This document shows positions 3,150-54,761 of a DNA stretch of 64,000 nt, piece after piece (position 1 is the first letter of the stretch; every line of letters begins with the position of its first letter). Source of the DNA: an uncultured Thermoleophilia bacterium. GTDB taxonomy: Bacteria > Actinomycetota > Thermoleophilia > UBA2241. The notes beneath the pieces were generated by a model. That model searched no databases and had not been told where the DNA came from. It worked only from the letters and a program-made list of their open reading frames with translations. The stretch is from contig CAVVGY010000010.1 of assembly GCA_963747935.1 (NCBI GenBank), positions 131,951 to 195,950 on the forward strand, in the 5' to 3' direction. A program made the translations under genes and the position numbers.

Positions 3150-3150
3150 C

Positions 3151-7171: not shown

Positions 7172-9560
7172 ATGGGGTTCACGTTCGGGCCGCGACGCGG
7201 CGTCTACATCGACATCTCGGAGGTCATGCCGCCCGAGGGGCCGCTGACGCCGGCCGAGCTCGCCCACTTCGAGGCCTTCGACCTGCTCTACCGCTCGCTC
7301 TGCGCCCTCCTCTTCAACTACGTGCCCACGTCGGGCCACCCCGGCGGCTCGATCTCGTCGGGGCGCGCGGTCGCGGCGGCGCTCTTCGACTCCATGGACT
7401 ACGAGCTCGGCGACCCGGACCGGCCGGACGCCGACCTGATCAGCTACGCGGCCGGCCACAAGGCCATGGGCCTGTACGCGATGTGGGCGCTGCGCGACGA
7501 GGTGGCGGCGGTGGCCGACCCGGCGCTGCTGCCCGGCAAGCAGGAGCAGCGCCTGCGCCTGGAGGACCTCCTCGGGTTCAGGCGCAACCCCATCACGGCG
7601 ACGCCGCTGTTCCGCGAGTTCGGCGCCCGAGCGCTCGACGGGCACCCGACGCCCGCGACCCCGTTCGTCAAGCTCGCGACCGGCGCCTCCGGCGTCGGCG
7701 TGGCCAGCTCGATCGGCCTCGGCATCGGCGCGGCCGACAGGTACGGAGCGGACGCGCCGCGAGTGCACATCATGGAGGGCGAGGGCGGCCTGACCCCCGG
7801 CCGCGTGAGCGAAGCTCTCGCCGCGGCCGGCACCGCCTCCCTCGCCAACGTGATCGTCCACCTCGACTGGAACCAGGCGAGCATCGATTCCGACCGCGTG
7901 TGTCGCGAGGGCGCCATCCCGGGCGACTACGTGCAGTGGGACCCGCTCGAGCTCTTCTACCTGCACGACTGGAACGTGGTGGACGTCCCCGACGGGCACG
8001 ACTTCCAGCAGGTCGTCGCGGCGCAGCGGCACGCGCTCGCGCTGCACACCGGCCAGCCGACGGCCATCGTCTACCACACGCAGAAGGGCTGGCGGTACGG
8101 CGTGGAGGGCAAGGCCAGCCACGGCGCCGGGCACAAGCTGTGCTCCGAGGGCTTCTACGAGGCGATCTCGGAGCTGACGCGCACCACCGGAGCCGAGGTG
8201 GAGTGGCCGACCTGCGACCCGGCGGACCGGGCCTGCGGCGGCCCGGACGGCGCGACCGTCAGGGAGCGCTGCTTCTGGACGGCGCTGCAGGCGGTCCGCG
8301 CGCAGGTGCACCAGGACCGGCCTACGGCGGCCGCGCTGGCGGAGCGGCTCGCGGCCGCACGCGACCGCCTCGAGGCGCGCGACAGGGCCCCCAGGCCCGG
8401 CGCTCCGCGCGTCGACGACGCCTACGAGCTCGCCGAGGCGACGGCGGCCGTCGCGCCGGCGCCGGAGGCCACTCCGGAGGAGCTGAGGCTCGAGCCGGGC
8501 ACCTTCACCACGCTCCGCGGTGAGCTCGGCCACACCCTGCACCACCTGCAGACGGTCAGCGGCGGCGCGTTCCTGGTGGCCGCCGCCGACCTCGCGGGCT
8601 CCACCAGCGTGAACACCGTCGCCGGCGGGTTCCCCGGCGGCTTCTGGAACGCGCACGCCAACATCGACGCGCGCCTGCTCTCGGTCGGAGGCATCTGCGA
8701 GGACGCCATCGCCGGGGTGCTCAGTGGCATCGCCGCCTACGGCCACGACCTCGGGGTCGGCTCGTCCTACGGCGCGTTCATGGCGCCGCTGGGGCACATC
8801 GCCGCGCGCCTGCACGCCATCGGCTCCCAGGCGCGGGCCTCGGTCACCGGCGAACCCTACAAGCCCCTGTTCCTCGTCTGCGCCCACGCCGGGCTCAAGA
8901 CCGGCGAGGACGGGCCGACACACGCCGACCCGCAGCCGCTACAGCTGCTCCAGGAGGACTTCCCCAGGGGCACGGCCGTCTCGCTGGTGCCCTGGGAGCC
9001 GCAGGAGGTCTGGACGCTGACCGCCGCCGCGCTGGCGCAGCGCCCCGCGGTGATCTCCGCGTTCGTCACCCGGCCGAACGAGCAGGTGCTGGACCGGGCC
9101 GGCCCTGGGTCTGGCGCCGGCCGAGGCCGCCGTCTCGGGCGTGTACCGGCTCCGCGACTGCGAGATCCCCGACGTGACCGTCGTCCTGCAGGAGAGCGCC
9201 GTGACCTACGCGTTCGTGCAGGACGCGCTGCCGATCCTGGAGGCAAAGGGTGTGGACGCGCTGGTCTACTACGTCGCCAGCGCCGAGCTCTTCGACCTGC
9301 TGCCCGAGGACGAACGGCGCGCGATCCTGCCGGAGGCGCGCGCCTCCGAAGCCATCGGTGTCACCGGCTTCACCCTGCCGACGCTCTACCGCTGGGTGAC
9401 CAGCGACGCCGGCCGGGCCGCGAGCCTGTTCCCGTTCAAGAAGGGACACTACCTGGGCAGCGGGCCGGGCGAGGTGGTGCTCGCCGAGGCCGGCCTCGAC
9501 GGCGCAAGCCAGGCGGCGGCGATCCTGCGCTACTGCGACGCCCGCGCCGCCGCCCGCTGA
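7172..9560 (+). CDS. Transketolase-like ThDP enzyme with insertions and an apparent +1 frameshift near 9100
   Basis: N-terminal GHPGGSIS ThDP motif. The transketolase C-terminal domain (VYRLRDC…VLQESA…) continues in another frame from about 9105. The 1020-aa ORF-track ORF is a composite with the downstream gene. Confidence 0.6.
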
Positions 9561-29080: not shown

Positions 29081-29282
29081 ACGTCCCCCTGGAATGACGT
29101 ACGTTGGTCGGTGCTACGAGCCGGCGCCGGATCCCCACCCGCGCGCCGTCCCTCGGCTCACACCATCGACCACCTCCTCCGTGCAGCCCGGCATGGCACC
29201 CAGGGTGCATAAGATGCGGAAGATCTCCTTAGGCGCATGCTACGGCCATGCGTGGACGTGTCAAGGCTGACACGCCATGATC

Positions 29283-30258
29283 TCAGCGGACGCGGAAGGC
29301 CGCCCAGGCGGAGACGGCGCCGGGGACCGAGGCCCGTGCCCGGAACGCGCCGGCCGAGCGCGGCCGGTACGGCCACCCGTAGGCGCCGGTGGCGCCGGTC
29401 GCGCGCAACGAGCTCGCCGCGGTCCTCCAAGCGCCTTTGACGCGGCGCTGCACGACGACCCGCACCTGCGCCGCGGCGCCGGCCGGCGTCAGCCGGCCGG
29501 TGAGCTGCACGCGGCGACCCAGCTTGAGCACGCTCTGCGATGCCGCGAGCGTGACGGCCGGCGGCAGCGGAGGCTCCGGCCGCAGGACGACGAAGCCGGC
29601 GGCGCTCGTGGCCACACCGCCGGCGCTGAGCACCGTCACCGGGCCGGAGACGGCCGCCTCCGGCACGGTCGCGGCGATCACCACGTCTGATACGACGGCG
29701 AAGGAGGCGTTGACGCCGCCGAAGCGGACGATGGCCGCCCACGTGAACTTGGCACCCGTGAGCGTCACGCTCGCCCCGGGGGCCGCGGACGCCGGCGTCA
29801 CCGCGTCCAGGCGTGGAGCCGGCACCGTGTGGTGCGCGCTGCCGGCCGACTCCGCGGCGGACTTCGTGACGGAGTGGCACGTGGTGCAGCCGGAGGGCGC
29901 ACCGGCGTGAGCGGCGTGCCGGAACTCGGCGCCGCCGCGCAGGTGGCACGTCGAGAGGCAGGACGCATCTGAACGCGCCCAGTCCATGTCCTGGCCGGGG
30001 GCGTGGCATGTCCAGCACACCTCCGCCGGTGCGGACGAGCTGGTACCCGGAGTGACAGCTGAAGCAGACTTCGCTGACGGGCGTTCTCTTGGTGTGGGCG
30101 TTCTCGTGGCAGGTCTCGCAGTCGCTGATCCCGCCATGCTGGTAGGCCTCGTAGGCGCCTGCCGCACCGGGCGCCAGCACGAGGACGAAGAGGGCGAGCG
30201 CCGCGAAGACCGCGGCCGGCAGGTACCGGTGCGGCCGGCGCTGCGCTTCGTGTCTCAC
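29283..30258 (-). CDS. Secreted multiheme c-type cytochrome (about 5 CxxCH motifs) with a C-terminal Ig-like domain; apparent frameshift near 30030
   Basis: GTG start after GGAGAGAGAGG; signal peptide AAVFAALALFVLVLAPGAAGA. Motifs CETCH and CFSCH (N-terminal frame); CWTCH, CLSTCH and CTTCH (29283..30167 frame). Confidence 0.6.
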
Positions 30259-30405
30259 GTGAACCTCTCTCTCCTGCCGCTGTGTTCCCCGTACGGTCCG
30301 CGACCTGGGTGTGGTCACAGAGGTGGGGCCGCGGCGGGACGAAGTGTCCGCCGCGGCCCCGGTCCTGCCGGCCGGCGTCAAGTCGCCGGCCGTGTCTGCG
30401 TCAGC

Positions 30406-32646
30406 CTACCGCACGCACTTGATGGTGATCTTGGCGCTGTACAGATCCGTAGCGGCTGAACCGGAACGGACCCACTTCACCTTGTAGTTCTTGTAGGTCT
30501 TGGAGACCTTGAACGTGAAGGCGAAGTTGCCGGTGGCGTCCGAAAGCGTGGTACCGATGACGGTGGAGCCACGCATGAGGACGACCTTGGCGCCGGTCGC
30601 GGCGGACTTGTCGCCGTTGACGATACGGCCGGCCACGTGCCCGTTGTGGTTCTTCTTGACGGGCGACTTGGCGGCGGCGTGCGTGAAGTAGCCGCCGACC
30701 GAGCGAGCTTCCTGCTCGGCCTTGCGCAGGCCGGCCATGATGTACCGCGGGTTGTGGACGCTACCGGAGGCGTCGTTCTCGTACGCCTTGTAGTTCCACG
30801 TCGCGCGGCCGACGAGCACGTAGCCCGGCTTGGAGCTGTCGGTGGCGGAGAACTCGCTCTTGGTCTTGGCCGTGGTGATGGCCGCGACCACAGCGGCAGC
30901 CTGCTCTTCAGCAGCCGTCTGCCACTCGTCGATGTTCGCCTGCAGCTCGTCGCGCGTGCGGCTCGGATGGCAGGTGGAGCAGGAGTCCTGACCGGCCGTG
31001 TACTTGGCCTCGGCCTGCCACTTCTCGGCGTCGCCCGGAAGCATCGGCTTCATGCCGTGCGAGATGCGGGTCTCGGCCTTGTTGGTCTTGGGCATGTGGC
31101 AGTCTTCGCACGCCGCGCCCGGCATGTACTCGTTGCCGTTGGCAACGTCCACATGACGCTGCGGGCGTGCAGGTTCTCGCGCTGCGGGTGGCTCGCGCCG
31201 CCGTGGGCGGAGAGGTCGGCCATCGGCACCGGGTTCGGGGTGGTGCCGAGGACTTCCATCTGCCAGTTGTGGCAGTCCTCGCAGATGCTCTGGTTGGAGA
31301 CGGTGAGGCCCTTGGCGCTGCGCTCGCCGGCCTGGTCGGGCTCGCGGACGACGTCTTCGGAGCCGACTGCGGACGGGTGACCGTTGTGGCAGGTGATGCA
31401 CTCCTGGCCCATCTTGCCGACGTTGTCCTTGGTCAGGACGAAGTCCTGGGCGATCGGGTCGCCCTTGGACTGCAGGTAGCCCTCGCCGGTGTGGCACTTG
31501 TAGCAACCGGGCAGTATTGGCGTCGAACATGTTGTTCGAGTAGTGGCCGTTGCCCGCCGCCTGGAACGCCATCGCGTCCGGGTCGGTCGTCGTGAGGCCG
31601 CGCGGTAGGAGTGCGCGGAGGCCGCCCACTCGTTGTAGTAGTAGTGGTTGCCCTTGGCGTTGCTGCCGTTCGGGATACATCCAGTAGGTCGTCGGTGCGA
31701 GAGCGAACTCGTCCTCCGACGGGATCTTGGTGTACGACTGGCCACCGCTCGACGCCGTTGATGTCGACGAAGTCGCGCATCTTCAGGTTGGTGGTGTAGC
31801 CGTAGATGCCGAGCGTGGTGCCCAGGTTGGTGTAGCTGCCGTGGCACTGGCCGCAGACCTGGGACTGGCCCAGGACGTCGAGGCTGCCGGAGATGTTCAC
31901 GTTGGTGTTGGTGTGGCCGTTCACGGCGTCGTACTGGCCGGTGCCGTGGCACTGCTCGCACTGGATGCCGAGGCCGGGGTACGAGACGGTCGGCGTCGGT
32001 CATGAAGTCGTTGACCGTCTTGGACTCGTCACGCGCCCACTGCACGCGGTGCCCGGCGTCGCCGCGACGGTCGCGGCGGGGTTCGGGACGGACTTGCCGG
32101 TGGCGCCCTTCATGGTCGGTGCCGAGCATGTGGCAGCGCTGGCAGCTGTAGGTCACGTCCCAGAGGCCCGTCGTCGCCGTCGCCGACGACCCACTCGCCG
32201 CTGGGCTCCCAGACGAGACCCTCGACGAGGTTCCACGGCATGACGGTCGGGATCGCTGGACTGCCGTTGAAGAACAGGTACTCGGTGGCGGATTGCCGGA
32301 TCGGCCGCGCCGAGCGTGACCCACGGAAGCTGTTGATGCTGTAGATGCCGCCCTGGGAGTAGACCTGGCCGGTGGCCGTAGGTCCGACCTGCGGGATGTC
32401 GCCGGCCGCGCTGAAGTTCGTCCAGTTGACGGGCGGCGCCGGGTTGACGCCGGCGGTCGCGAACGCGCCGTGGAGGGCGGACGTGACCTTGAGGTCGCCA
32501 GACATCTTGCTGTGGCAGTCGAGGCACTTCGCCTGGCCGGCGAAGTGCATGCCGTATTCGTTTGTGAGAGTCGCGGACGCCAGAGCTGGCAGCACGAGCA
32601 TGCCGATCAGGGCGACCACGAGCAGAATGAAGATCTTCTTCCCCAT
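30406..32646 (-). CDS. Large secreted multiheme c-type cytochrome (at least 8 CxxCH motifs) with a C-terminal carboxypeptidase-regulatory-like beta domain; several apparent frameshifts
   Basis: ATG at 32646 after GAAGAGGAG; signal peptide MGKKIFILLVVALIGMLVLPALASA. CLDCH, CQRCH, CGQCH, CYKCH, CITCH, CEDCH (twice) and CSTCH are spread over three frames. The C-terminus is GNFAFTFKVSKTYKNYKVKWV. Confidence 0.6.
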
Positions 32647-32986: not shown

Positions 32987-33493
32987 TCAGACGGCCCGCC
33001 GCTCCAGTTCGCGCGCGAGCTGCTCTCCCCAGGCTCGCGCGCGTTCCGCCTCACCCTTCTTGAGGGGGCCCTGAGAGCCCTTGACGACGAACCCCTCCGG
33101 CTCGGCGATACCGACGTAGCCCTTGGTCTCGAGCAGCGACTGGATCTCGGGGGCGCCCTTGCCGAACGGACCGCGCACCTGGGTGTCGAACGCGGCCGCG
33201 CAGGCGCTGCCCGCCGGCAACGACGCCAGCCAGGTGCGCAGCAGCGGGCAGGAGAGGTCCGGGGCCGGGCCTCTGCCCGGGCTCTGGCGGATGCCCTCGC
33301 GCATCTTCTCCGACGACAGCTTGAAGCCGAACACGGGCGCGCCGGCGACGATGAGGCCGGCGCCCTCCACGTCCGCGGCCGTGACCTCGTCGGCGCGCAG
33401 GGCGCGGGCGCCCGGACCGAGCCCCTCGGCCACCGCCCGGGCCACCTCGGCCGTGTTGCCCCACAACGACTCGTACACCACGATCGCGTCCAT
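32987..33493 (-). CDS. Flavodoxin-like fold protein
   Basis: MDAIVVYESLWGNTAEVARAVAEGL… is a flavodoxin-type N-terminus. Confidence 0.6.
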   Translation of the reverse strand: MDAIVVYESLWGNTAEVARAVAEGLGPGARALRADEVTAADVEGAGLIVAGAPVFGFKLSSEKMREGIRQSPGRGPAPDLSCPLLRTWLASLPAGSACAAAFDTQVRGPFGKGAPEIQSLLETKGYVGIAEPEGFVVKGSQGPLKKGEAERARAWGEQLARELERRAV

Positions 33494-33635
33494 CTGCTCA
33501 CCCTCCCGGCTCCCGCGCGCCGCGCGGGCGGCCGACTCGCCCATCCCTGCGCCGATGGTACGACGCCGACGTCGCTTCGCGGTCGCGCGACAGGGGTAGT
33601 ACGACAGGCGAGACGATGATTCGCAAGGAGGGCAC

Positions 33636-45542: not shown

Positions 45543-46655
45543 TCAGGCGCAGCGCACCACGCCGCGCGCCCAGAGGCAGTCGCCGCAGGTGGGGTGCGGG
45601 TTGCCGAGACAGTCCTCTTCGTTGGTCTCGGCCAGTTCGCACCCGCAGTCGGTGCAGGGCGGGAAGTCGAAGCGCCGGACCCGGTCGCGGAACGCGACGT
45701 ACTCCGGCCCGGCCCAGACGGCGGCCAGAGACTCGGCCGGGAGCCTGCCCACCTCCCAGCGCACGATGCGCTTCTCGCGCCCGCGCACGTAGCAGGTGTA
45801 CGTGTGCAGCAGGGGCGGGCACGGGCTCACGCCGCCGTGCCAGGCCACCGCGCAGGCGTCCGCGTGCACGAACGGGCAGCGGGCGCGCGTGTCCTCCGGG
45901 TCGGCGCCGTGGAACGAGACCGGACCCGAGCGGGTCAGCGCCTTGCCCAGCGAGGCTCCGAGCTCCTCGTCCCAGTCGAACGCCGGCAGCTGCCAGCGGG
46001 CGCCGGCGGTGGTGTGGGCGCCGCTGGACGTGGACCCCTGGCGGTCGTAGAGCGTCTGGTCGAGCAGGTCCTCGGTGTAGGCGAGCACGTTGCTGACGAT
46101 GATGAACGTCGCGCCCAGTTGCGCGGCGAGCCGGCGCAGGCCGGGCAGCTCGCCGATGTTGGAGCGCATCGCCACGAACTCGACCCCGATGCGCACCGCG
46201 GAGCTGTAGTTGGGTCCGCGGTGGTCGTGCAGGCGGCGCACGTTCTCCACCACACGGGCCAGTGAGGCGCCGGAACGGACGCGGCCGAAGGCCTCGGCGG
46301 AGGCGCCGTCGATGCTCACGACGAGCTGGTCGAGCCCCGCCTCGAGCAGCGCTGCCGCCATCGCGTCGTCCAGCAGCAGCGCGTTGGTCGTGACCTCGGT
46401 CCGCAGCCCGCGCTCCTTGGCGAGCCGCACCATGTCCGGGAACCTGGGGTGCAGCAGCGGCTCCCCCAGCCCCATGAACGCGACCGTGCCGGGCCCGCCT
46501 TCGTCCGCCGGCCCGGCCACTCCGGCCACCACGGCCTCGAACGTCGCCCACTCCATGAAGCCCTCGGGCTCGTCCCACGCGTGGCGGATGCAGGTGGCGC
46601 AGGCGAGGTTGCAGGCGTTCGTCGGCTCGACGTAGACCTTGGCCGGCGCGGTCAC
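45543..46655 (-). CDS. Radical SAM enzyme with a C-terminal Cys-rich SPASM/twitch-like auxiliary-cluster domain
   Basis: CNLACATC (CxxxCxxC) at residues 15-22. The C-terminal cysteines are CPFVHADACAVAWHGGVSPC…CYVRG…CTDCGC…CGDCLWARGVVRC. Last gene of the arsP operon. Confidence 0.8.
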   Translation of the reverse strand: MTAPAKVYVEPTNACNLACATCIRHAWDEPEGFMEWATFEAVVAGVAGPADEGGPGTVAFMGLGEPLLHPRFPDMVRLAKERGLRTEVTTNALLLDDAMAAALLEAGLDQLVVSIDGASAEAFGRVRSGASLARVVENVRRLHDHRGPNYSSAVRIGVEFVAMRSNIGELPGLRRLAAQLGATFIIVSNVLAYTEDLLDQTLYDRQGSTSSGAHTTAGARWQLPAFDWDEELGASLGKALTRSGPVSFHGADPEDTRARCPFVHADACAVAWHGGVSPCPPLLHTYTCYVRGREKRIVRWEVGRLPAESLAAVWAGPEYVAFRDRVRRFDFPPCTDCGCELAETNEEDCLGNPHPTCGDCLWARGVVRCA

Positions 46656-47461
46656 AGGCCCATACCTGCGCAGATCGCGAGAAGCGCTTCGCGGAGGTCC
46701 TCACGGCCTCCCCCGAAGACCGGCGCGCAGTCTTGTGGATCCGCGTCACCGCGCCAGACGGCCCAGGCGAAAGCGTTGCAGGTCGCCTCGCCGCACTCCC
46801 CGCAGTTGCTGCCCGGCAGCCGCTTGAGGATCTCGAGCGCCGGCGGCCGCCGGCGCGCCTCGAACGAGGGCTCGATCTGCTCACGCCGCGCCCAGACCTC
46901 GTTCACCTGGCTGCGCAGCCGCTCGAGGCTGGCCCAGGCGTCGACGATGTCGTCGGCCTTGGCGATGCCCACCCTGTCGCGGAACAGCGACACCATCCGG
47001 TGGCCGTCCATGTAGGTGAGCACGGGGAGCTTGGCGGTGTACGACGCCTGGTGCAGCTCGGCGTTCAGATAGGGGAGCGCCTCGGCCGCGTCCCCCTCGA
47101 GGTGGGCGATGAGCCGCAGCTTCTCGGGGTCTGCCACGCAGGGCGCAAGGACGACGATGGCCATGCCGGGGATGAGCTCTTCCGGCGCGGGGATGAGCCC
47201 GTCCGCCGCGGAGGCGGGCGACTGCTCCGGCACGCTCCGCCGGGATGGTCTGTGCTCCACCCAGCCCGCGCCGACGAGCCCCGCGCCGCCGTTGTCCAGA
47301 TACTCGGCGCGCGCCTCCGCCGTCAGGACGAGGGCCGGGCACCCGACGCGCTCGTAGCCGGGGTCTGGAGAGACGACTTCGTACCCGATGCCGAGGCGGT
47401 CGAGAAGCTGCTGCGCCTTGGCCAGCTCACGCCGGTCCGTGAATGTCGTCAGCCAGTCCAC
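46652..47461 (-). CDS. Two-domain protein: N-terminal DUF3343-like domain (putative S/Se-carrier-like) plus a C-terminal CFeSP-type Fe-S cluster domain (LPGSNCGECGEATCNAFA)
   Basis: N-terminus FTDRRELAKAQQLLDRLGIGYEVVSPDPGYERVGCPALVL; C-terminus …RLPGSNCGECGEATCNAFAWAV…. Confidence 0.45.
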   Translation of the reverse strand: MDWLTTFTDRRELAKAQQLLDRLGIGYEVVSPDPGYERVGCPALVLTAEARAEYLDNGGAGLVGAGWVEHRPSRRSVPEQSPASAADGLIPAPEELIPGMAIVVLAPCVADPEKLRLIAHLEGDAAEALPYLNAELHQASYTAKLPVLTYMDGHRMVSLFRDRVGIAKADDIVDAWASLERLRSQVNEVWARREQIEPSFEARRRPPALEILKRLPGSNCGECGEATCNAFAWAVWRGDADPQDCAPVFGGGREDLREALLAICAGMGL

Positions 47462-47464
47462 GGC

Positions 47465-47701
47465 TCAGCTCGACGCCTGCGCCCTCATCCGGCGATAGTC
47501 CTCGAGCGACGGGAAGCTGATCGCCCCCTTCTCACAGAGGCCGGCGCAGTGCGAGCAGCCGGCGATGCAGGCGTCCTGGTGGACCACCTCGACCCTGTCG
47601 CCGGAGAAGCCGTACACGCCTTGCTGGCAGAACTCGAGGCAGGTGCGACAGCCGTCGCACAGCTCACTCTCGATCGTCGGGCCCCACACGAGCGTGCTCA
47701 T
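47465..47701 (-). CDS. Small 4Fe-4S dicluster ferredoxin-like protein
   Basis: 78 aa; CDGCRTCLEFC and CIAGCSHCAGLC. Confidence 0.6.
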   Translation of the reverse strand: MSTLVWGPTIESELCDGCRTCLEFCQQGVYGFSGDRVEVVHQDACIAGCSHCAGLCEKGAISFPSLEDYRRMRAQASS

Positions 47702-47716
47702 CGGAATCCCCCTCCT

Positions 47717-48343
47717 CTAGCAGCAGCAGGCGCCTGCCGCCGGGCGCTTGTTGGCGAAGTAGCGCGCCAGGTTCTCGGGCAACTCGACGAGCGGCTCCGG
47801 AGTGACGGGCGGCCGCTCGTCGACCTTGAGCAGCGCGTCCATGAGCGCCTCGACGAGAAGCGGTAGCGGCGCGGCGCTGTAGACCTCGCCCCGGTAGTGC
47901 CACTCGCGGCAGTCGACGCTCACGTCGCCGTCGGTCAGGTCGCCGCAAGACTCGCACTCGGACTCACGGATGTCCTGGTCGATGTCACGGCCGTTGACGC
48001 GGATGGTGGGCGAGGAGAGCAGCGCGCGCGCCTTGGCCTCGTCCGCGCTCTGGACGACCGTCTCGCGGTACGTGAGGCCGACGTCGAGAGCCTCGGCCGC
48101 CGCGGCGACGATCTCGATGGCCTCACGCAACTGCTCGCCGGTGGGCACGCAGCGCGCGCACGTGTCGAGGTCGATGACGAGCAACTCGATGTTGAGCCGC
48201 CGCCTCTGCGCGCTCGTACGCGCGGAGGGGGCGGCCGCGGCCTCAGCCGCGGGGGCGCCGCAGCAGCACGGCGAGGCGGAGGCGGACTGGTCGCCGCAGC
48301 AGGAGGACGCTGCGGGGCCGGAGGTCGTCGGGGCGTCAGTCAT
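47717..48343 (-). CDS. DUF2703-like thioredoxin-fold protein with Cys-cluster termini (N-terminal SSCCGDQSASASPCCCG, C-terminal AGACCC); candidate metalloid-binding protein
   Basis: Core LNIELLVIDLDTCARCVPTGEQL. There are 10 Cys in vicinal pairs or triplets at the two termini. Confidence 0.45.
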   Translation of the reverse strand: MTDAPTTSGPAASSCCGDQSASASPCCCGAPAAEAAAAPSARTSAQRRRLNIELLVIDLDTCARCVPTGEQLREAIEIVAAAAEALDVGLTYRETVVQSADEAKARALLSSPTIRVNGRDIDQDIRESECESCGDLTDGDVSVDCREWHYRGEVYSAAPLPLLVEALMDALLKVDERPPVTPEPLVELPENLARYFANKRPAAGACCC

Positions 48344-48393
48344 GCTGGTTCAGGCTCCTTCGGGTGGATGGAGATTGTGATCGGTAGCAGCGC

Positions 48394-49409
48394 TCAGCCG
48401 AGCACCAGGTTGAAGAGGTAGCCGACGAACACGATGCCGAGGCCCACGACGCCGAGGAACGTGAAGATGAGCGGCCACTTCAGCACCTTCTTGAGGATGA
48501 TCGTCTCGGGCAGCGAGAGAGCGATGACCGCCATCATGAAGGCGAGCACGGTGCCGAGGGCGGCGCCCTTCTCCAGCAGCGCCTCCACGATGGGGATGAT
48601 GCCCGCGGCGTTCGAGTACATGGGGATGCCGAGCAGGACCGCGAGCGGCACGCTCCACCAGGTGCCGGCGCCCATGATGCCGGCCATGAAGTCCTGCGGC
48701 ACGTAACCGTGGATGACGGCGCCGACGGCGATGCCCGCGAGCACCCAGGGCCAGACCCTGCCGACGATGTCCTTGACCGCCTGCCAAGCGTACTCACGCG
48801 GGCCGCCCAGGAGAGCTGCTCGCTCGCGGCGGCGGCCTCGCCCATCCTGATCTCGAGTACCCAGTCCTCGATGTAGCGCTCCATCTTCAGGCGCCCGATC
48901 ACCCAGCCGGCCACCATGGCGATGAGGAGGCCGGTCACGAGGTAGAGGGCGGCGACCTCCCAGCCGAAGAGCCCGTAGAGCAGCACCAGGGCGATCTCGT
49001 TGACCATGGGCGCGGCGATGAGGAACGAGAAGGTCACGCCGAGCGGGATGCCGGCCTCCACGAAGCCGATGAAGAGGGGGACCGCCGAGCAACTGCAGAA
49101 CGGTGTCACGATGCCGAGGCTCGCGGCCATCACGTTGCCGGTGGCCTCGCGCCGGCCGTGCAGGAGGGCGCGGGTGCGCTCCGGGCTGAAGAACGAGCGC
49201 ACCACACCGACGCCGAAGACCACCAGGGTGAGCAGAAGGAGCACCTTCACGCTGTCGTAGACGAAGAACTCGAGGGCGGATGCCCAACGGGTGTCCGGCA
49301 GCTGCAGGACGCCGTGGAACAGCCACACCGTGAAGGGCAGCCAGAAGTGGTAGACGACCGCCCAGAGGCCGACCCCGAGGACCAGGCGCAGCCACAGCGG
49401 CAGGCCCAT
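48394..49409 (-). CDS. arsP: ArsP-type (DUF318) permease, putative organoarsenical efflux; apparent frameshift near 48810
   Basis: The TPFCSCSAVP motif matches ArsP. The N-terminal half is in the 48534..49409 frame and the C-terminal half in the 48394..49587 frame. Confidence 0.65.
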
Positions 49410-49656
49410 CCAGAGGCGGACCGCGGCGGGCGCCAGCCGCGGCGGCGGCCTCGTCCGCGGGGGCGACGGGCGCGCCGGTCGAGCAGGCGCAGGCGGGCAG
49501 GGTCGACGTTGCTCTCCCTGCAGTCGCCGGCTCCCCCACTTCAGTGCTGGGGGCGACCTCGATGACCTGCTCGCTCATGTTGCTCAACTCCCCGCGCTCG
49601 TCGGACCCGCGAAGCCCGTGATCAGGGGTGTTGCAGCCAGCTCACGCTGCAGTCGC

Positions 49657-50343
49657 TCATAGTCGTAGGGGACGCGCACGAACTCGACGAAGTCCGGTGT
49701 CGCCGAGCCGCGCCGGGTCGACGACGGCGTAGCAGACGCGCCAGTCGCCGTCCTTGGGGCGGCCGCCGCTGCCGACGTTGACGAAGACCGTCTCGCCGAC
49801 CGGGCGCGCGTAGGGCACGTGCGTGTGCCCGAAGAAGATGGCCGGGTAGGGGTACTCATCGGCCATGCGCGCCATGGCCTTCTCCGGCCGGTCCTCGAAG
49901 AGGTACTCGTTGATGCGCCGTGGGCTGCCGTGGACGGCGAGCAGGTCGCCTGCGGGCGTGGCGAGCGTGAAGTGGTCCTCGAGCGTGCGCAGATACGCCT
50001 TGACCTCGGCGGTCACCACCTCCTGCGTCCACTCCAACGACACGGCCCCCTCGGCGCGCTGCTCGTCGGTCTTGTAGACGCAGCCGCAGTCGCCGGTCTC
50101 GAAGCCGATGCCCTGGTCGTAGTTGCCCATGAGGCTGGGGATGCCGCGGTCGCGGACGAGCAGTGCGACCTCGTTGGGCGAAGGGCCGTAGCCGACCAGA
50201 TCGCCTAGAGAGATCGTCTGCGGCACGCTTCGTTGTTCGATGTCGGCGAGGATGGCCTCGAGCCCGGGCAGGTTGCCGTGCACGTCGCTGAAGAGGGCGA
50301 ACGGGGTCTCGAGCGTGAGCGTCCTCAACTGCGGTCCTTTCAT
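49657..50343 (-). CDS. Calcineurin-like metallophosphoesterase
   Basis: FSDVHGN, GDLVGYG and GNYD motifs. Confidence 0.8.
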   Translation of the reverse strand: MKGPQLRTLTLETPFALFSDVHGNLPGLEAILADIEQRSVPQTISLGDLVGYGPSPNEVALLVRDRGIPSLMGNYDQGIGFETGDCGCVYKTDEQRAEGAVSLEWTQEVVTAEVKAYLRTLEDHFTLATPAGDLLAVHGSPRRINEYLFEDRPEKAMARMADEYPYPAIFFGHTHVPYARPVGETVFVNVGSGGRPKDGDWRVCYAVVDPARLGDTGLRRVRARPLRL

Positions 50344-50364
50344 CGACTGCCGTTTATATCAATA

Positions 50365-50402
50365 CTCTTGACCATAAACCTACGTCGATGTAAGGTCAAG
50401 AG
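50365..50402. promoter_or_regulatory. Perfect 9-bp inverted repeat CTCTTGACC-N20-GGTCAAGAG in the AT-rich divergent promoter region upstream of acr3; candidate ArsR operator
   Basis: It lies between the divergently transcribed metallophosphoesterase gene (start 50343) and acr3 (start 50442). It contains a TTGACC -35-like hexamer. Confidence 0.4.
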
Positions 50403-50441
50403 GCGCCGCTGTGAACCCCCGTCGACTTAGGAGAATCGAGC

Positions 50442-51566
50442 ATGGCTGAAGGCACGATGAGGAGATTGTCCTTCCTCGACCGCTACCTCACCCTCTGGAT
50501 CTTCCTCGCCATGGCCGTCGGCGTGGCCGTCGGCTGGGCGTTCGTCAGCGTGCCGGAGTTCATCGACAGGTGGACGGTGGGCACGACCAACATCCCCATC
50601 GCCATCGGCCTCATCATCATGATGTATCCGCCGCTGGCGAAGGTGCGCTACGAGGAGCTCGGCGACGTCTTCAAGGACTACAGGATCCTCGGCCTCAGCC
50701 TCGTGCAGAACTGGCTCATCGGCCCATTCGTGATGTTCTTCCTGGCGATCATCTTCCTGCACAACTACCCGGAGTACATGGTCGGGCTCATCATGATGGG
50801 CCTCGCGCGCTGCATCGCCATGGTGATCGTCTGGAACCAGCTGGCGAAGGGCGACACCGAGTACGCCGCAGGCCTCGTCGCCTTCAACAGCATCTTCCAG
50901 GTGCTGTTCTACAGCGTGTTCGCCTGGATCTTCGTCACCAAGCTGCCGCCGCTCTTCGGGCTCGAGGGCGCGACGGTGGACGTCTCCATCGGCCAGATCG
51001 CCAAGAGCGTCGCCATCTACCTCGGCATCCCGTTCGTGGCCGGCATGATCACGCGCTACGTCGGCCTGAAGGTCAAAGGGCGGGAGTGGTACGAGCAGAA
51101 GTTCATCCCGCGCATCAGCCCGCTCACGCTCATCGCCCTGCTGTTCACGATCTTCGTGATGTTCAGCCTCAAGGGCGACCTCATCGTGCAGTTGCCGCTC
51201 GACGTCGTGCGCATCGCCATCCCGCTCGCCATCTACTTCGCGATCATGTTCTTCGTGAGCTTCTACATGGGCCGGCGCATCGGCGCCGACTACTCCAAGA
51301 CCGCGACCCTGAGCTTCACCGCGGCGAGCAACAACTTCGAGCTGGCCATCGCGGTCGCCATCGCCACCTTCGGCCTGAACTCGGGCGAGGCGTTCGCCAC
51401 CGTGATCGGCCCGCTGGTCGAGGTGCCGGTGCTGATCGGCCTCGTGAGCGTCTCCCTGTGGTTCGGGCGCAAGTACTGGGGCGTCACGGATGAACCGGTG
51501 CCGGCCGCCGTGGCGGCGGGGTGCGACGAGGTGGGCTGCGACCCGATTCGCGGAAGGGAGACCTGA
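50442..51566 (+). CDS. acr3: Arsenite efflux transporter ACR3
   Basis: 374 aa with conserved Acr3 architecture and motifs ([13 protein letters not shown]…, [11 protein letters not shown]). Confidence 0.9.
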
Positions 51567-51943
51567 TGGCGATGCAAGCTGTCCGCAAGGGGACCATCGA
51601 AGACTACGTGCCGCTGTTCAAGGCACTGTGCAACTCCACCAGGGCGCAGATCATGGAGTTCCTTCTCAGCGGCGAACGCTGCGTGTGCGAGATGACCGGT
51701 CCGCTGGACCTGAGCCAGCCGCTGGTCTCGCACCACCTGGGCCTGCTCCGCGACGCCGGGCTGGTGAACATGCGCGACGAGGGCGCCCGCACGTACTACT
51801 CGATCAACGAGGAGCGGTTCGACGCGGATCTCCAGGGGTTCGTCGCCCATGTGGATCGTCTGCGCAACACGCCGCGGCCGGCGCTCGACCCGGCGTCGGC
51901 CTGCGCCACACCGGTCGTCAGGCCCGGCAAGAAGTCCGCCTAG
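51566..51943 (+). CDS. arsR: ArsR/SmtB-family metalloregulator
   Basis: The ATG overlaps the acr3 stop (TGATG). Metal-binding ERCVCEM motif and HTH LSQPLVSHHLGLLRDAGLV. Confidence 0.8.
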   Translation: MAMQAVRKGTIEDYVPLFKALCNSTRAQIMEFLLSGERCVCEMTGPLDLSQPLVSHHLGLLRDAGLVNMRDEGARTYYSINEERFDADLQGFVAHVDRLRNTPRPALDPASACATPVVRPGKKSA

Positions 51944-51969
51944 CAAATCCGCGTCACAAGGAGACATCA

Positions 51970-52224
51970 ATGAAGCTCGAGATCCTCGGCTCCGGCTGCG
52001 CCAACTGCAAGAAGCTTGAGGCGATCACGAACGAGGCGGTCGCCGACCTCGCCATCGGCGACGTAGAGGTCGTGAAGGTCACCGACATGAAGGACATCAT
52101 GGGGTACGGCATCATGTCGACGCCGGGCCTCGTCATCGACGGCAAGGTCGTCTCCAGCGGTCGCGTGCCGTCCAAGGCCGAGGTAGCCTCGATGATCACG
52201 ACCGAGCTGGCCGCCCGGGGATGA
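51970..52224 (+). CDS. Small thioredoxin-fold redox-active disulfide protein (TM0996/MTH895-like, GCANC motif)
   Basis: 84 aa; MKLEILGSGCANCKKLE…. Confidence 0.6.
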   Translation: MKLEILGSGCANCKKLEAITNEAVADLAIGDVEVVKVTDMKDIMGYGIMSTPGLVIDGKVVSSGRVPSKAEVASMITTELAARG

Positions 52225-52232
52225 TCTGCGGA

Positions 52233-52662
52233 ATGCCGCAGAGCGGGCTCTTCTGTTTGGCTCTCACCGCCGTGCTGATCGCGGCGGCCAGCCTTGGCGG
52301 GCTGCGGCGGATCGAGCGCCGAGAGCGGCTCGGCGGCTGCACCGGCTGTGGGCGACAGTCCCGCAGCCAAGCCCAAGGTGACGTTTATCGAGCTCGGCGC
52401 CGACAGTTGCGTCCCCTGCAAAGAGATGAAGCCCGTCATGAAGGGCATCGAGCTGGCGTTCGGCGACCAGGTCGAGGTGATCTTCTACGACGTCTGGGAG
52501 GACCCGGCGCCGGCCAACGAGTACGGCATCCAGATGATCCCCACGCAGATCTTCCTCGACGAGAAGGGCGAAGAGTTCCACCGGCACACGGGCTTCTACC
52601 CTCAGGCCGACATCGAGGCGCTCCTGGTGGAGCAGGGCCTCACCAAGGCCACCACGCAGTAG
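52233..52662 (+). CDS. TlpA/ResA-like thioredoxin lipoprotein (CVPC active site); apparent frameshift near 52285
   Basis: Signal peptide and lipobox (…IAAAS/LAGCGG). Thioredoxin motif SCVPC. Confidence 0.55.
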
Positions 52663-52668
52663 CGCGCG

Positions 52669-53361
52669 GTGCTCGAGCAGATCCTCACCAGCCTGAGCAA
52701 CGGCCTCGACCAGTCGCTCGGCTGGGCGCTGCTGGCGGCGTTCGCGTGGGGCGTCGTGAGCATCGTCTTCAGCCCCTGCCACCTGGCCAGCGTGCCGCTC
52801 ATCGTCGGCTTCATCTCCACCCAGGAAGACGCCTCGACCAGGCGCGCGTTCCGGCTCTCGCTCCTGTTCGCGCTGGGCGTGCTCGCCTCCATCGCGGTGA
52901 TCGGCGTGGTCACCTGGTCGATCGGCAGGCTGCTCGGCGACCTCGGGTCTGTCGGGAACATTGCGGTCGCCGTCGTCTTCTTCGTCTTCGGCCTCTACCT
53001 CATGGGGCTGCTGCCGCTCAACTGGAACGTCTTCCCCAAGACGACGAGGCGGCGCGGCGCTCCTGCGGCGGTGGGACTCGGGCTCGCGTTCGGCGTCGGC
53101 CTCGGCCCCTGCTCGTTCGCCTTCCTGGCGCCGCTCCTCATGATCGTCTTCGGCAGCGCGAGCACCCACTACCTGTTGGCGGTCGGCCTCCTGGCGGCCT
53201 TCGCAGCGGGGCACTGCGGCGTCATCGTAGCCGCCGGCACCGCTGCGCAGAAGGTGCAGGACTGGGCGGTGTGGGGCGATCGCTCGGGCGTGACGCGGTG
53301 GGTGCGGCGCGTCAGCGGAGCGCTGGTCGTGCTCGCCGGCGTCTATCTGCTCGCGACGTAG
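52669..53361 (+). CDS. ccdA: CcdA/DsbD-family transmembrane thiol-disulfide exchanger
   Basis: GTG start. Six predicted transmembrane helices with conserved Cys in helices 1 and 4 (SPCHLASVP, GLGPCSFAF). Confidence 0.75.
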   Translation: MLEQILTSLSNGLDQSLGWALLAAFAWGVVSIVFSPCHLASVPLIVGFISTQEDASTRRAFRLSLLFALGVLASIAVIGVVTWSIGRLLGDLGSVGNIAVAVVFFVFGLYLMGLLPLNWNVFPKTTRRRGAPAAVGLGLAFGVGLGPCSFAFLAPLLMIVFGSASTHYLLAVGLLAAFAAGHCGVIVAAGTAAQKVQDWAVWGDRSGVTRWVRRVSGALVVLAGVYLLAT

Positions 53362-53369
53362 CTGGGTGA

Positions 53370-53814
53370 TCAGCCGGCGGAGTCGGGCGGTACGTTGATG
53401 ATCACGCCGAAGGCGCGCAGCGTGTCCGCCACCTCGCTGTTCACCGAGTAGAACGTCCATTTGCCGCGGGTCTCCTCGACGACCAGACCCGCGTCCTTGA
53501 GCACGCGCAGGTGGTACGACGCCTTGGACTGCGCGAGCCCGAACTGCTCCTGGAACTCGCAGACGCAGAGCCCCGAGGGGTCGCCCGCGCCGGGCACACC
53601 CGCGCTCCGCGGGGTCGATGAGGCCGCAGCAGCCGCGGCCCTGCGTCATGACGTCCAGCATGCCGAGGCGGATGGGGTCGGAGAGCGCCTTCGCGACCCT
53701 GGCGAGGCGCGCCAGGGTCTCGGGGTCCGTGCGCGTGCAGCAGACGGCCTCCGCCACCGGCGGCGCGCACGCCGCACTCTTCTTGTCCGTTCTTGGTGGC
53801 CATGACCGGACCAT
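53370..53814 (-). CDS. Second ArsR-family regulator with extra N-terminal Cys pairs (…CC…, CCG…, LCVCEF); apparent frameshift near 53600
   Basis: ATG at 53814 (MVRSWPP…AVCCTRTDPETLARLARVAKALSDPIRLGMLDV…CCGLIDP). The C-terminal half, in another frame, is LCVCEFQEQFGLAQSKASYHLRVLKDAGLV. Confidence 0.6.
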
Positions 53815-53830
53815 AGCACAAGAAATCTTG

Positions 53831-53878
53831 ATTTGGTATTGACAAGGCCGCTGGCAGCGCCTACATTGATACCAACAA
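53831..53878. promoter_or_regulatory. AT-rich divergent arsR2/arsM promoter region with imperfect inverted repeat TTGGTATTGACAA-N18-TTGATACCAACAA and two TTGACA -35-like hexamers
   Basis: A local GC drop (about 40% against a 70%+ background) in the intergenic region 53815..53913. Confidence 0.4.
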
Positions 53879-53913
53879 AAGTTGATTTGACATCGTCGAC
53901 CAGGGAGCCCGTG

Positions 53914-54761
53914 ATGAGTGAGACCAAGGACCAGGAACTCAAAGGTCAGATCCGCGACCACTACGCCGAGCGCGCCGTGGCGGCCAAGGACGCCACGGCG
54001 CCGGTGAGCTGCTGCGGTCCGTCGAGCACGAGCAGTTGCTGCGGCGGCCAGGCCGTCGAGGCGCAGGACGAGTTCGCGCGCGGCCTCTACGACGTCTCCG
54101 AGACCGGCGACCTCCCCGACGGCGCCGTGCTCGCCAGCCTCGGTTGCGGCAACCCGACGGCGCTCGCCGACCTGCAGCGCCGGCGAGGTCGTGCTCGACC
54201 TCGGCAGCGGCGGCGGCATCGACGTCCTGCTGTCCGCCAGGCGCGTCGGCCCCACCGGCAAGGCCTACGGCCTCGACATGACCGACGAGATGCTCGCCCT
54301 GGCCCGCGAGAACCAGGCCAAGGCCGGCGTGACCAACGTCGAGTTCCTCAAGGGTGAGATCGAGGACATCCCGCTGCCGGACGACTCGGTGGACGTGATC
54401 ATCAGCAACTGCGTCATCAACCTGTCGGTCGACAAGGACAAGGTGCTGGCGGAGGCCTATCGGGTGCTCAAGCCCGGCGGGCGGTTCGCGGTCTCGGACA
54501 TCGTGTTCCAGGGCGACGTGAGCCTCATCCCCGAGCACATCTTGCGCAGCATCGAGTCGTGGTCCGGCTGCGTCGCCGGAGCGCTCGAGGAGCAGGACTA
54601 CCTGGACAAGCTGCGGCGCGCCGGCTTCGCCGACGCCGCGATCGAGGTGACGCAGGTGTACGACGAGCGTGCCGGACGGATGCGGCGTCGACCTGAGCGA
54701 GATCCCGGACGGCATCCGCGTGGTGAGCGGGTTCGTGCGCGCGACCAAGCCGGCGAGCTGA
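53914..54761 (+). CDS. arsM: Arsenite S-adenosylmethionine methyltransferase ArsM; two apparent frameshifts (about 54180 and 54665)
   Basis: N-terminal [15 protein letters not shown] Cys pairs; SAM-binding [12 protein letters not shown]; C-terminus …[28 protein letters not shown]. It spans three frames. Confidence 0.7.

Follow-up and report, generated by a model that had tools for sequence, protein, structure and literature searches.

A conserved pair of multihaem cytochrome genes in uncultured Thermoleophilia: a candidate electron-transfer module related to OcwA

Two multihaem cytochrome genes on the minus strand

The DNA analysed here is a stretch of 64,000 nucleotides (henceforth the window) from an uncultured Thermoleophilia bacterium: contig CAVVGY010000010.1 of assembly GCA_963747935.1. 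It carries two adjacent genes for multihaem c-type cytochromes on the minus strand. The limits of the pair are exactly 29283-32646: the stop codon of gene 1 lies at 29283-29285 and the ATG of gene 2 at 32646. A six-frame translation of the whole window contains 13 CxxCH motifs, and all 13 fall within these limits on the minus strand. Because the window has no other CxxCH in any frame, this clustering is far beyond chance.

A scan of the three minus-strand frames places nine of the motifs in gene 2 and four in gene 1, which also has the sequence CLSTCH. The haem motifs of the pair are distributed over three reading frames. Consistent with this picture, a plot of GC content at third codon positions (GC3) by frame, combined with a three-frame read-out, shows a coding frame that switches repeatedly across the region, with a restored path that is free of stops. 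CxxCK was found in no frame of the cytochrome region, and Rfam and tRNA scans found no RNA genes in the window.

An original prediction, made from the sequence, had described the region as a pair of neighbouring genes for secreted multihaem cytochromes that carry Ig-like domains, in a high-GC, Gram-positive-like genome. That description stands, the genome being actinobacterial, and the syntenic relatives of the region are metagenome-assembled genomes (MAGs) of Thermoleophilia. With the frames restored the products are 744 and 324 aa long, carrying nine CxxCH and four CxxCH plus one CX3CH, respectively. Every haem motif listed in the prediction is present; CEQCH (31960) and CLSTCH (29960) are additional and bring the counts to nine and five haems. 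In what follows homologous loci are labelled L001 and so on, homologous proteins P0001 and so on, and residue numbers of models are those of the homologue.

Gene 2 and its relationship to OcwA

Gene 2 (30406..32646, minus strand), assembled from open reading frames (ORFs) and a three-frame reading, encodes a nine-haem c-type cytochrome of the OcwA family. Its haem motifs are, in order, CLDCH, CQRCH, CEQCH, CGQCH, CYKCH, CITCH, CEDCH, CEDCH and CSTCH. A protein search with the stitched product returned 159 homologues, mostly of 730-760 aa. The best of these, P0001 (746 aa, from a JGI soil metagenome), is 93% identical; frameshift-aware alignment gives 94% identity over 738 matched codons.

The protein begins with a predicted Sec signal peptide (32575..32646, minus strand; MGKKIFILLVVALIGMLVLPALA and then cleavage before SA, read by eye from the sequence), which matches an N-terminal helix at residues 2-22 in the AlphaFold2 (AF2) model of P0001. 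The model has a pLDDT score (predicted local distance difference test) of 82 and consists, after the leader helix, of a beta-rich region (~60-165), the haem core, long helices (566-650) and a beta-sandwich (654-746). The helices (566-594, 608-625 and 634-650) define a C-terminal three-helix bundle of the NrfA/OcwA type at 30706..30958 (minus strand), and this bundle aligns with the C-terminal helices of OcwA in both single-sequence and profile searches of the PDB. The beta-sandwich (30409..30694, minus strand; AF2 strands at 654-743, pLDDT >90) is of an Ig-like or CarboxypepD_reg-like kind: Foldseek matches it to Ig-like domains, and Pfam CarboxypepD_reg (PF13620) is matched with an E-value of 0.0016, under the cutoff. 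Pfam Cytochrom_C552 (PF02335) is matched with 41 bits (cutoff 24), covering model positions 242-392 of 438 only; the further Pfam matches are sub-threshold multihaem families. No curated NCBIfam model reaches its cutoff for the product of either gene.

Searched against all PDB sequences, P0001 has a sole match: 6I5B, the structure of the outer cell-wall cytochrome OcwA (TherJR_2595; nine haems) from Thermincola potens JR, with an E-value of 1.7e-20 for the single sequence. A profile built from 40 gene 2 family sequences extends this match to 3.7e-39, collinear with both halves of OcwA. The fold tells the same story: a Foldseek search of the PDB with the AF2 model of P0001 places 6I5B on top (E 1.2e-13, TM-score 0.64 on the target, 575 columns), followed by just Ig-like domains and weak NrfA/ONR matches, with the next cytochromes at E >0.01. 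OcwA is thus the sole strong match of gene 2 by sequence and by fold. It is a surface terminal reductase of Thermincola (PMC6703420) and delivers electrons to electrodes and minerals.

The correspondence extends to the putative haem ligands. Across 40 members of the gene 2 family the nine CxxCH motifs are invariant (the first cysteine of haem 2 in at least 90%), as are exactly eight histidines outside the motifs (59, 244, 333, 344, 422, 485, 529 and 630). All nine motifs, all eight histidines and Met531 align with identical residues in OcwA. In OcwA six haems are bis-His ligated, one is His/Met ligated and two are five-coordinate with a distal pocket histidine (PMC6703420). Eight extra histidines is the number expected from that scheme, so the gene 2 family would fit it, with each ligand assigned to its haem, including the methionine to haem 9, by reference to the published coordination. 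Pocket residues are likewise invariant: H333 together with Y335/Y336, and H485-P-Q-R488-E489. The latter, on our own reading, appears to line up with the catalytic-histidine segment HPxxE of NrfA. The His-His motif that lies over haems 2 and 5 of OcwA is half-kept (NHYYYNEW for SHHLQYPEW, SHPQRE for HHPHKE), and both haems of gene 2 probably keep an open, substrate-accessible site.

On the strength of these alignments and of the predicted fold we regard the gene 2 product as a full-length homologue of OcwA, which is its only characterised relative. The two proteins share nine collinear CxxCH motifs, the eight histidines, the methionine and the three-helix bundle; both have a Sec leader and both come from a Gram-positive lineage. 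They differ in that identity is only ~24%, and in that gene 2 family members are ~220 aa longer, have a beta-rich region of greater size at the N-terminus and carry an additional Ig-like domain at the C-terminus. Furthermore, the host of OcwA is a thermophilic Firmicute whereas the gene 2 family belongs to soil Actinomycetota, and the family, unlike OcwA, has a dedicated adjoining multihaem partner gene.

Two other assignments were considered and set aside. NrfA (PF02335) resembles gene 2 in its last two haems and helical bundle, and its HPxxE-type distal histidine segment is kept; NrfA structures match the 40-sequence profile at 1e-7, but over positions ~500-655 only. NrfA has five haems against the nine of gene 2, the latter lacks CxxCK, the profile match is partial and no NCBIfam model reaches its cutoff. 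Membership of the MtrC/OmcA type of decahaem cytochromes was likewise rejected: the match to PF22113, the profile of MtrC/MtrF domain II/IV, reaches 27.7 bits where 30 would be needed, and no MtrC-type structure occurs among the fold matches. Public names look misleading in this respect. Among P0030, P0053, P0120, P0155 and P0164, nine-haem proteins bear the NCBI name 'ammonia-forming cytochrome c nitrite reductase subunit c552', which is unjustified because CxxCK is lacking.

Gene 1: a five-haem partner with Ig-like domains

Gene 1 (29283..30258, minus strand) encodes, after one extra base at 30024 is dropped, a five-haem cytochrome that continues into two Ig-like domains, the first of them IPT/TIG. 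The gene starts with a GTG at 30258, preceded by the ribosome-binding site GGAGAGAGAGG. The N-terminus is Sec-like by eye (a basic n-region, AAVFAALALFVLVLAP, then GAAGA/YE); the N-termini of both proteins are thus in keeping with the Sec signal peptides that had been predicted for them. The haem motifs are CETCH, CFSCH, CWTCH, CLSTCH (a CX3CH motif, at 29960) and CTTCH.

Gene 1 has 51 homologues, nearly all of 300-335 aa, which carry the public name 'IPT/TIG domain-containing protein' only, a label that looks misleading. In an alignment of 34 of them the CX3CH motif is invariant: the invariant residues are C47/C50/H51, C65/C68/H69, C81/C84/H85, C100/C104/H105 and C124, with C127/H128 near-invariant. 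Six further histidines (H41, H55, H114, H117, H142 and H143) are invariant or near-invariant. Taken from this alignment, the N-terminal part of the protein is a five-haem domain of ~115 residues. Haem motifs of the CX3CH kind are already known from homologues of MtrA (bioRxiv 10.1101/2025.05.29.656830).

Residues 149-214 match TIG (PF01833) with 30.4 bits (cutoff 20.9). The AF2 model of a close homologue contains an N-terminal helix and two beta-sandwiches (149-224 and 250-323, pLDDT >90), with a haem domain of pLDDT <50; Foldseek with this model found generic tandem-Ig domains of surface proteins only. The beta domains claimed by the original prediction are accordingly present in both proteins, with the qualification given above for CarboxypepD_reg.

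Against the PDB the haem domain of gene 1 gives weak matches (E 6e-4 to 4e-3) to ActA-type c7-like pentahaem subunits. ActA, of alternative complex III (ACIII; 6F0K, 6LOD and 8K9E), resembles gene 1 over ~90 residues that span several haem motifs, and both have an N-terminal hydrophobic helix. ActA differs in lacking the CX3CH motif and the two Ig-like domains, and the E-value is only ~1e-3; no genes for other ACIII subunits lie near gene 1. NrfB has no detectable similarity to gene 1.

Frameshifts: assembly error or gene decay

Eleven frame-changing single-base indels (seven insertions and four deletions, net +3) cluster at 31150..32332 (minus strand) in gene 2. They were placed by frameshift-aware alignment to P0001 and confirmed by nucleotide alignment with the intact loci L004 and L001. 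The nucleotide alignments with these two loci reveal an additional, compensated +2/+1 pair in gene 2 at 32264/32248: the two indels are 17 nt apart and give, at 32248-32265, in-frame NGSPAIPT for NQSSDPT. The +2 at 32264 is common to the window and L059, and 32248-32265 may therefore be a genuine compensated frameshift of the lineage. Gene 1 contains a single-base insertion (+1) at 30024 (minus strand; context GGC-G-GAGG), between haem 2 and haem 3.

Two explanations need to be weighed. Either the 12 frame-breaking indels arose in sequencing and assembly, or they are real and the nine-haem gene of this strain, perhaps along with the five-haem gene, has lately been inactivated to a pseudogene. 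Several observations speak for real decay and so weigh against the former. The 11 indels are packed into 1.18 kb, ~100x the density in the rest of the window, a clustering for which no explanation was found; four neighbouring genes (DAO-GCV_T, flavodoxin-like, permease and M20) are free of indels; and the majority of the indels lie outside long homopolymers. In addition, an independent assembly (L059, ~9964; context GGC-GC-AGG) has a single-base insertion at the very position of the one in gene 1, where four other relatives have none, which could mean a real, inherited frameshift, and the +2 at 32264 is shared with L059.

The pattern of substitution argues otherwise. In mutation-accumulation studies spontaneous indels are ~ten-fold rarer than substitutions; 11 neutral indels would therefore imply ~100 unconstrained substitutions in the 1.2 kb affected, and the excess seen is ~13 at most. 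Differences between gene 2 and L004 at codon positions 1/2/3 number 17/13/43 in the indel stretch, against 7/8/23 in the C-terminal part, which is intact; the third-position bias is thus kept, and the alignment to P0001 shows that no in-frame stop has arisen in the restored gene 2 frame. Gene 1 is still constrained past its frameshift: downstream of 30024 the window differs from L059 by 13/9/29 at the three codon positions. Two origins can be considered for the insertion at 30024: basecalling may err systematically there, perhaps because a base is modified, or the mutation is real and shared; because downstream gene 1 keeps its third-position bias, a context-specific systematic error is favoured over an inherited pseudogene.

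The distribution of frameshifts among relatives points the same way. Orthologues in five Illumina-assembled MAGs are all without frameshift, whereas four of ten loci from MFD Nanopore MAGs are frameshifted, with 1, 2, 3 and 14 frameshifts. MFD MAGs are Nanopore-only Flye assemblies that were run through Medaka once and were not polished with short reads (PMC12313526). The same type of patch strikes other genes in sister Nanopore contigs: L059 (ENA ERZ25039477 contig_21027) has 12 indels in its M20 peptidase gene, 6 in the permease and 7 in a 2-hydroxyacid dehydrogenase; L014 has 4 in DAO and L020 has 14 in the nine-haem gene.

Nor is the cytochrome pair the only frameshifted part of the window. 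There are at least five more frameshifts: in a transketolase (9095-9110), a Peptidase_S51-like gene (~15670), ArsP (~48790), ArsR (~53600) and ArsM (~54180). That unrelated genes are affected points to an assembly that is indel-prone overall.

From these data we consider it likely that the indels are assembly errors rather than gene decay. The 12 frame-breaking indels are most likely consensus errors of what would be a Nanopore-only assembly, and the real genes are probably intact; a recently inactivated pseudogene is improbable.

Three other causes were examined. A strain chimera was rejected since the nearest neighbour does not change when identity to five relatives is followed along the sequence, L004 being closest throughout gene 2. 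A homopolymer or simple-motif cause was rejected because most indels lie in short mixed G/C contexts with no clear motif. Programmed frameshifting at 30024, where GGAGG is present, was rejected because the sequence there has neither a slippery codon nor a stop close by, and because four relatives show no shift at this site.

Indel patches in the related Nanopore-only contigs are ~1 kb long, affect different genes in each assembly and reach 12-14 indels per gene. They make gene callers emit short fragments, for example P0040, P0125 and P0159. In the window a frameshift splits the transketolase, where the N and pyrimidine-binding domains share one frame and the C domain is in another, and one splits the ArsP permease, where Pfam model positions 2-147 and 171-293 are in two frames.

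Conservation, regulation and distribution of the pair

The window is syntenic with contigs of Thermoleophilia MAGs, in which the genes run DAO-FAO_M-GCV_T, flavodoxin-like, nine-haem, five-haem, amino-acid permease and M20 peptidase. The two cytochrome genes are adjacent in at least 11 Thermoleophilia genomes with varying flanks. The gene 1 orthologue is directly downstream of the gene 2 orthologue in L001-L012, L014, L015 and L020, and the flanking genes differ.

Between gene 2 and gene 1 lie two GC-rich hairpins (30325..30392, minus strand; fold z-scores -4.0 and -4.7). The long stem is formed by GGGGCCGCGGCGGAC...GUCCCGCCGCGGCCCC and has a long perfect GC core (GGGGCCGCGGCGGAC...GUCCGCCGCGGCCCC); the second hairpin is upstream of the long one. 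An equivalent stem of 15-17 bp is found at L001:12242-12378, L006:12224-12360 and L009:12215-12350, and is kept down to 66% protein identity. The hairpin may be a terminator or an attenuator, or it may stabilise the transcript and so set how much of each cytochrome is made relative to the other. Just past gene 1, before the gene for the amino-acid permease, is a sigma-70-like promoter match (TTGACA-16-TAGCAT; 29237..29264, minus strand; a consensus match only), which suggests that the cytochrome pair is transcribed apart from the permease. The promoter scan found no sigma-70-like site upstream of gene 2. Because adjacency is kept as the flanks rearrange, with the hairpin between the genes and the promoter-like site after gene 1, the pair appears to be a self-contained two-gene module.

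A wider survey indicates that the gene 2 family is small and distinct. HMMER searches of 1.84 billion cluster representatives returned 127 clusters at E <=1e-30, many of which match in the Ig-like domain only; OcwA is found at 3e-35. When each GTDB species was represented by one genome and these were scanned, the family occurred at 52 species loci, all from MAGs or metagenome-derived, and mostly from Thermoleophilia and Coriobacteriia. The original prediction had called such cytochromes rare in Actinobacteriota-like lineages, a statement that needs qualifying in the light of these numbers.

Nearly every member of the gene 2 family has another multihaem cytochrome as its neighbour, although not always the same one. 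In Coriobacteriia-type loci the gene 2 homologue adjoins a 19-24-CxxCH cytochrome. Coriobacteriia clusters (Anaerosomatales and Coriobacteriaceae EMTCatB1), for which Fe(III) reduction or interaction with electrodes has been proposed, belong to the same family as gene 2, at 29-38% identity, and differ from the window in having this 19-24-haem partner in place of the five-haem-TIG protein and in their longer proteins, some with cell-wall-binding repeats; one distant family member carries the repeats CW_binding_2. OcwA homologues have already been noted in Anaerosoma, of the Anaerosomatales (PMC9686372), and Thermoleophilia MAGs are on record as encoding multihaem cytochromes of the surface (bioRxiv 10.1101/2022.03.26.485925). 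Full-text literature searches on OcwA and multiheme Thermoleophilia returned no description of the nine-haem/five-haem pair.

The 19-24-CxxCH neighbours (520-580 aa or ~1100 aa) occur in Coriobacteriia, 'Eubacteriales' and other Actinomycetes MAGs, at L018, L021, L024, L026-L028, L030-L033, L035, L037, L039-L042, L045 and L046. Each would be a haem-dense putative wire, of which no description turned up.

A proposed role in extracytoplasmic electron transfer

Taken together, the above analyses lead us to propose, with a probability of roughly 0.6, that the pair is a conserved two-gene module of uncultured Thermoleophilia that forms an extracytoplasmic electron-transfer chain to external acceptors, the indels being assembly errors. 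The sole characterised relative of gene 2 is the surface reductase OcwA, and gene 2 family members are paired near-constantly with a multihaem cytochrome; for these two reasons a role in extracellular or cell-wall electron transfer is plausible and is the best-supported reading of the pair. The original prediction had likewise suggested an electron conduit, in a form that extended to arsenic redox; the conduit remains, the arsenic component does not (see below).

The chain could operate as follows. Both cytochromes would be exported by Sec and receive their haem outside the membrane. The five-haem protein would relay electrons from the membrane quinol pool, by way of a dehydrogenase encoded elsewhere, to the nine-haem protein, which would reside within the wall or at its surface, where the Ig-like domains would hold or space it. 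The Sec-type leader, the Ig-like domains and the CW_binding_2 repeats of a distant member point to such a location indirectly. From the nine-haem protein electrons would pass to acceptors outside the cell, for example Fe(III)/Mn(IV) minerals or humic quinones. Nitrite or hydroxylamine might also be reduced at the open haems of gene 2, an activity that could coexist with transfer to external acceptors.

Not all observations sit comfortably with transfer to external acceptors. The 54 window ORFs and ORF fragments, which were scanned with Pfam for maturation and partner genes, include no quinol dehydrogenase and no cytochrome c maturation gene, and no such gene is conserved beside the orthologous pairs, the flanks of which vary. 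A Rieske/cytochrome b cluster was considered as a flanking partner and discarded, being near one homologue only and unconserved. The pocket of OcwA is altered in the gene 2 family, where alignment shows HH replaced by HY at 333-334 and by SH at 484-485; with the second histidine replaced, the chemistry of the open haems may differ from that of OcwA. Finally, OcwA also reduces nitrite and hydroxylamine in vitro (PMC6703420), so homology to it cannot separate mineral from small-molecule reduction.

This last point bears directly on an alternative in which the genes are intact and the pair is an extracytoplasmic small-molecule reductase or detoxifier, acting on nitrite, hydroxylamine, NO or sulfur oxyanions, with the five-haem protein serving as electron donor, as NrfB does to NrfA, rather than as part of a conduit to solids. 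The arrangement of a catalytic cytochrome and a five-haem partner in a gene pair would resemble the NrfA-NrfB pairing. The Cytochrom_C552 and NrfA matches to the C-terminal half of gene 2, the invariance of the pocket residues and the in vitro activities of OcwA would all be in accord with it, as would the nitrite reductase name that NCBI gives to relatives. The turnover of nitrite by OcwA is very low, however, with a kcat of ~1 per min (PMC6703420). The absence of CxxCK and the count of nine haems rather than five are also out of keeping with such an enzyme; the Ig-like and cell-wall-binding domains, together with the 19-24-haem partners of relatives, point to long-range transfer; and no nitrogen- or sulfur-cycle genes are conserved near the pair. 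We judge a dedicated small-molecule reductase to be unlikely, though it is the alternative to which we give most weight.

The module could also run in reverse, so that Fe(II), reduced humics or other donors outside the cell would supply electrons to an aerobic respiratory chain. In principle a multihaem chain can work in either direction, and cultivated Thermoleophilia are mostly aerobes. A distant homologue of gene 2 occurs in Coriobacteriaceae EMTCatB1 (L033), an organism whose multihaem cytochromes have been proposed to take up cathode electrons (PMC7943316). Yet nothing ties the L033 homologue to the induced genes of EMTCatB1, the 54 window ORFs and fragments contain no Cyc2-, rusticyanin- or Fox-type partners, and the characterised relative OcwA acts as a reductase. 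Electron uptake thus seems quite improbable.

A more specific form of the external-acceptor proposal can be offered tentatively: the pair might be a Thermoleophilia-specific and previously undescribed cell-wall conduit, in which a five-haem relay with an invariant CX3CH haem feeds an OcwA-like terminal cytochrome. If true, such a conduit would let widespread soil Actinomycetota, usually seen as aerobic heterotrophs, respire minerals or humics, or exchange electrons, in anoxia. Gram-positive extracellular electron transfer is known from a handful of proteins, among which OcwA is the sole one of its kind with a structure. What is new here is an actinobacterial clade of OcwA-like cytochromes with the full set of haems and putative ligands, an added Ig-like domain and a dedicated five-haem partner. 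The clade occurs in numerous uncultured Thermoleophilia of soil, a group that is abundant but of obscure physiology, and is thereby a candidate for mineral or humic respiration.

The data also expose two problems of annotation. Relatives go by the names 'nitrite reductase c552' or simply 'IPT/TIG protein'. Furthermore, genes in Nanopore-only MAGs may be taken for pseudogenes where indels are densely clustered.

The arsenic island and other neighbouring genes

An arsenic island of lower GC (0.64-0.68) occupies 45555-54667. Its genes encode a radical-SAM/SPASM protein, a ferredoxin, a DUF2703 protein, an ArsP permease, a metallophosphoesterase and an Acr3-type transporter (SBF family), and further an ArsR, two thioredoxin-fold proteins, a DsbD_TM protein, a second ArsR and ArsM.

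The original prediction had linked this island to the cytochromes, through a role of the pair in arsenic redox and through maturation by the CcdA- and TlpA-like genes of the island. The DsbD_TM protein (Pfam 35.7 bits, cutoff 27.1) and the two thioredoxin-fold proteins are indeed in the same window, at 51970-53361. However, they form a thioredoxin module inside an ars operon with ArsP, Acr3, two ArsR and ArsM, and among NCBIfam models the DsbD_TM protein matches an ArsG-like one best, under the cutoff. The operon (at 45.5-54.7 kb) is ~13 kb from the cytochromes, across unrelated genes and at the lower GC noted above, and no ars genes flank the orthologous cytochrome pairs. No ResB or CcsA was found by Pfam among the 54 window ORFs and fragments. 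Neither link is supported by this evidence, and a part for the pair in arsenic redox, with maturation by the island, is very unlikely indeed.

Two further features of the window deserve mention. Upstream of gene 2, on the same strand, 32987-33544 (minus strand) encodes a 185-aa flavodoxin-like protein (weak Flavodoxin_1), a gene that is conserved near the pair in several, not all, orthologous loci. At 912-4986 (minus strand) an adjacent gene pair resembles an NAD-linked formate dehydrogenase or related oxidoreductase: the first protein has 2Fe-2S, NADH-G 4Fe-4S and molybdopterin oxidoreductase domains, and the second NuoF-type 4Fe-4S and GltD-like pyridine-nucleotide oxidoreductase domains.

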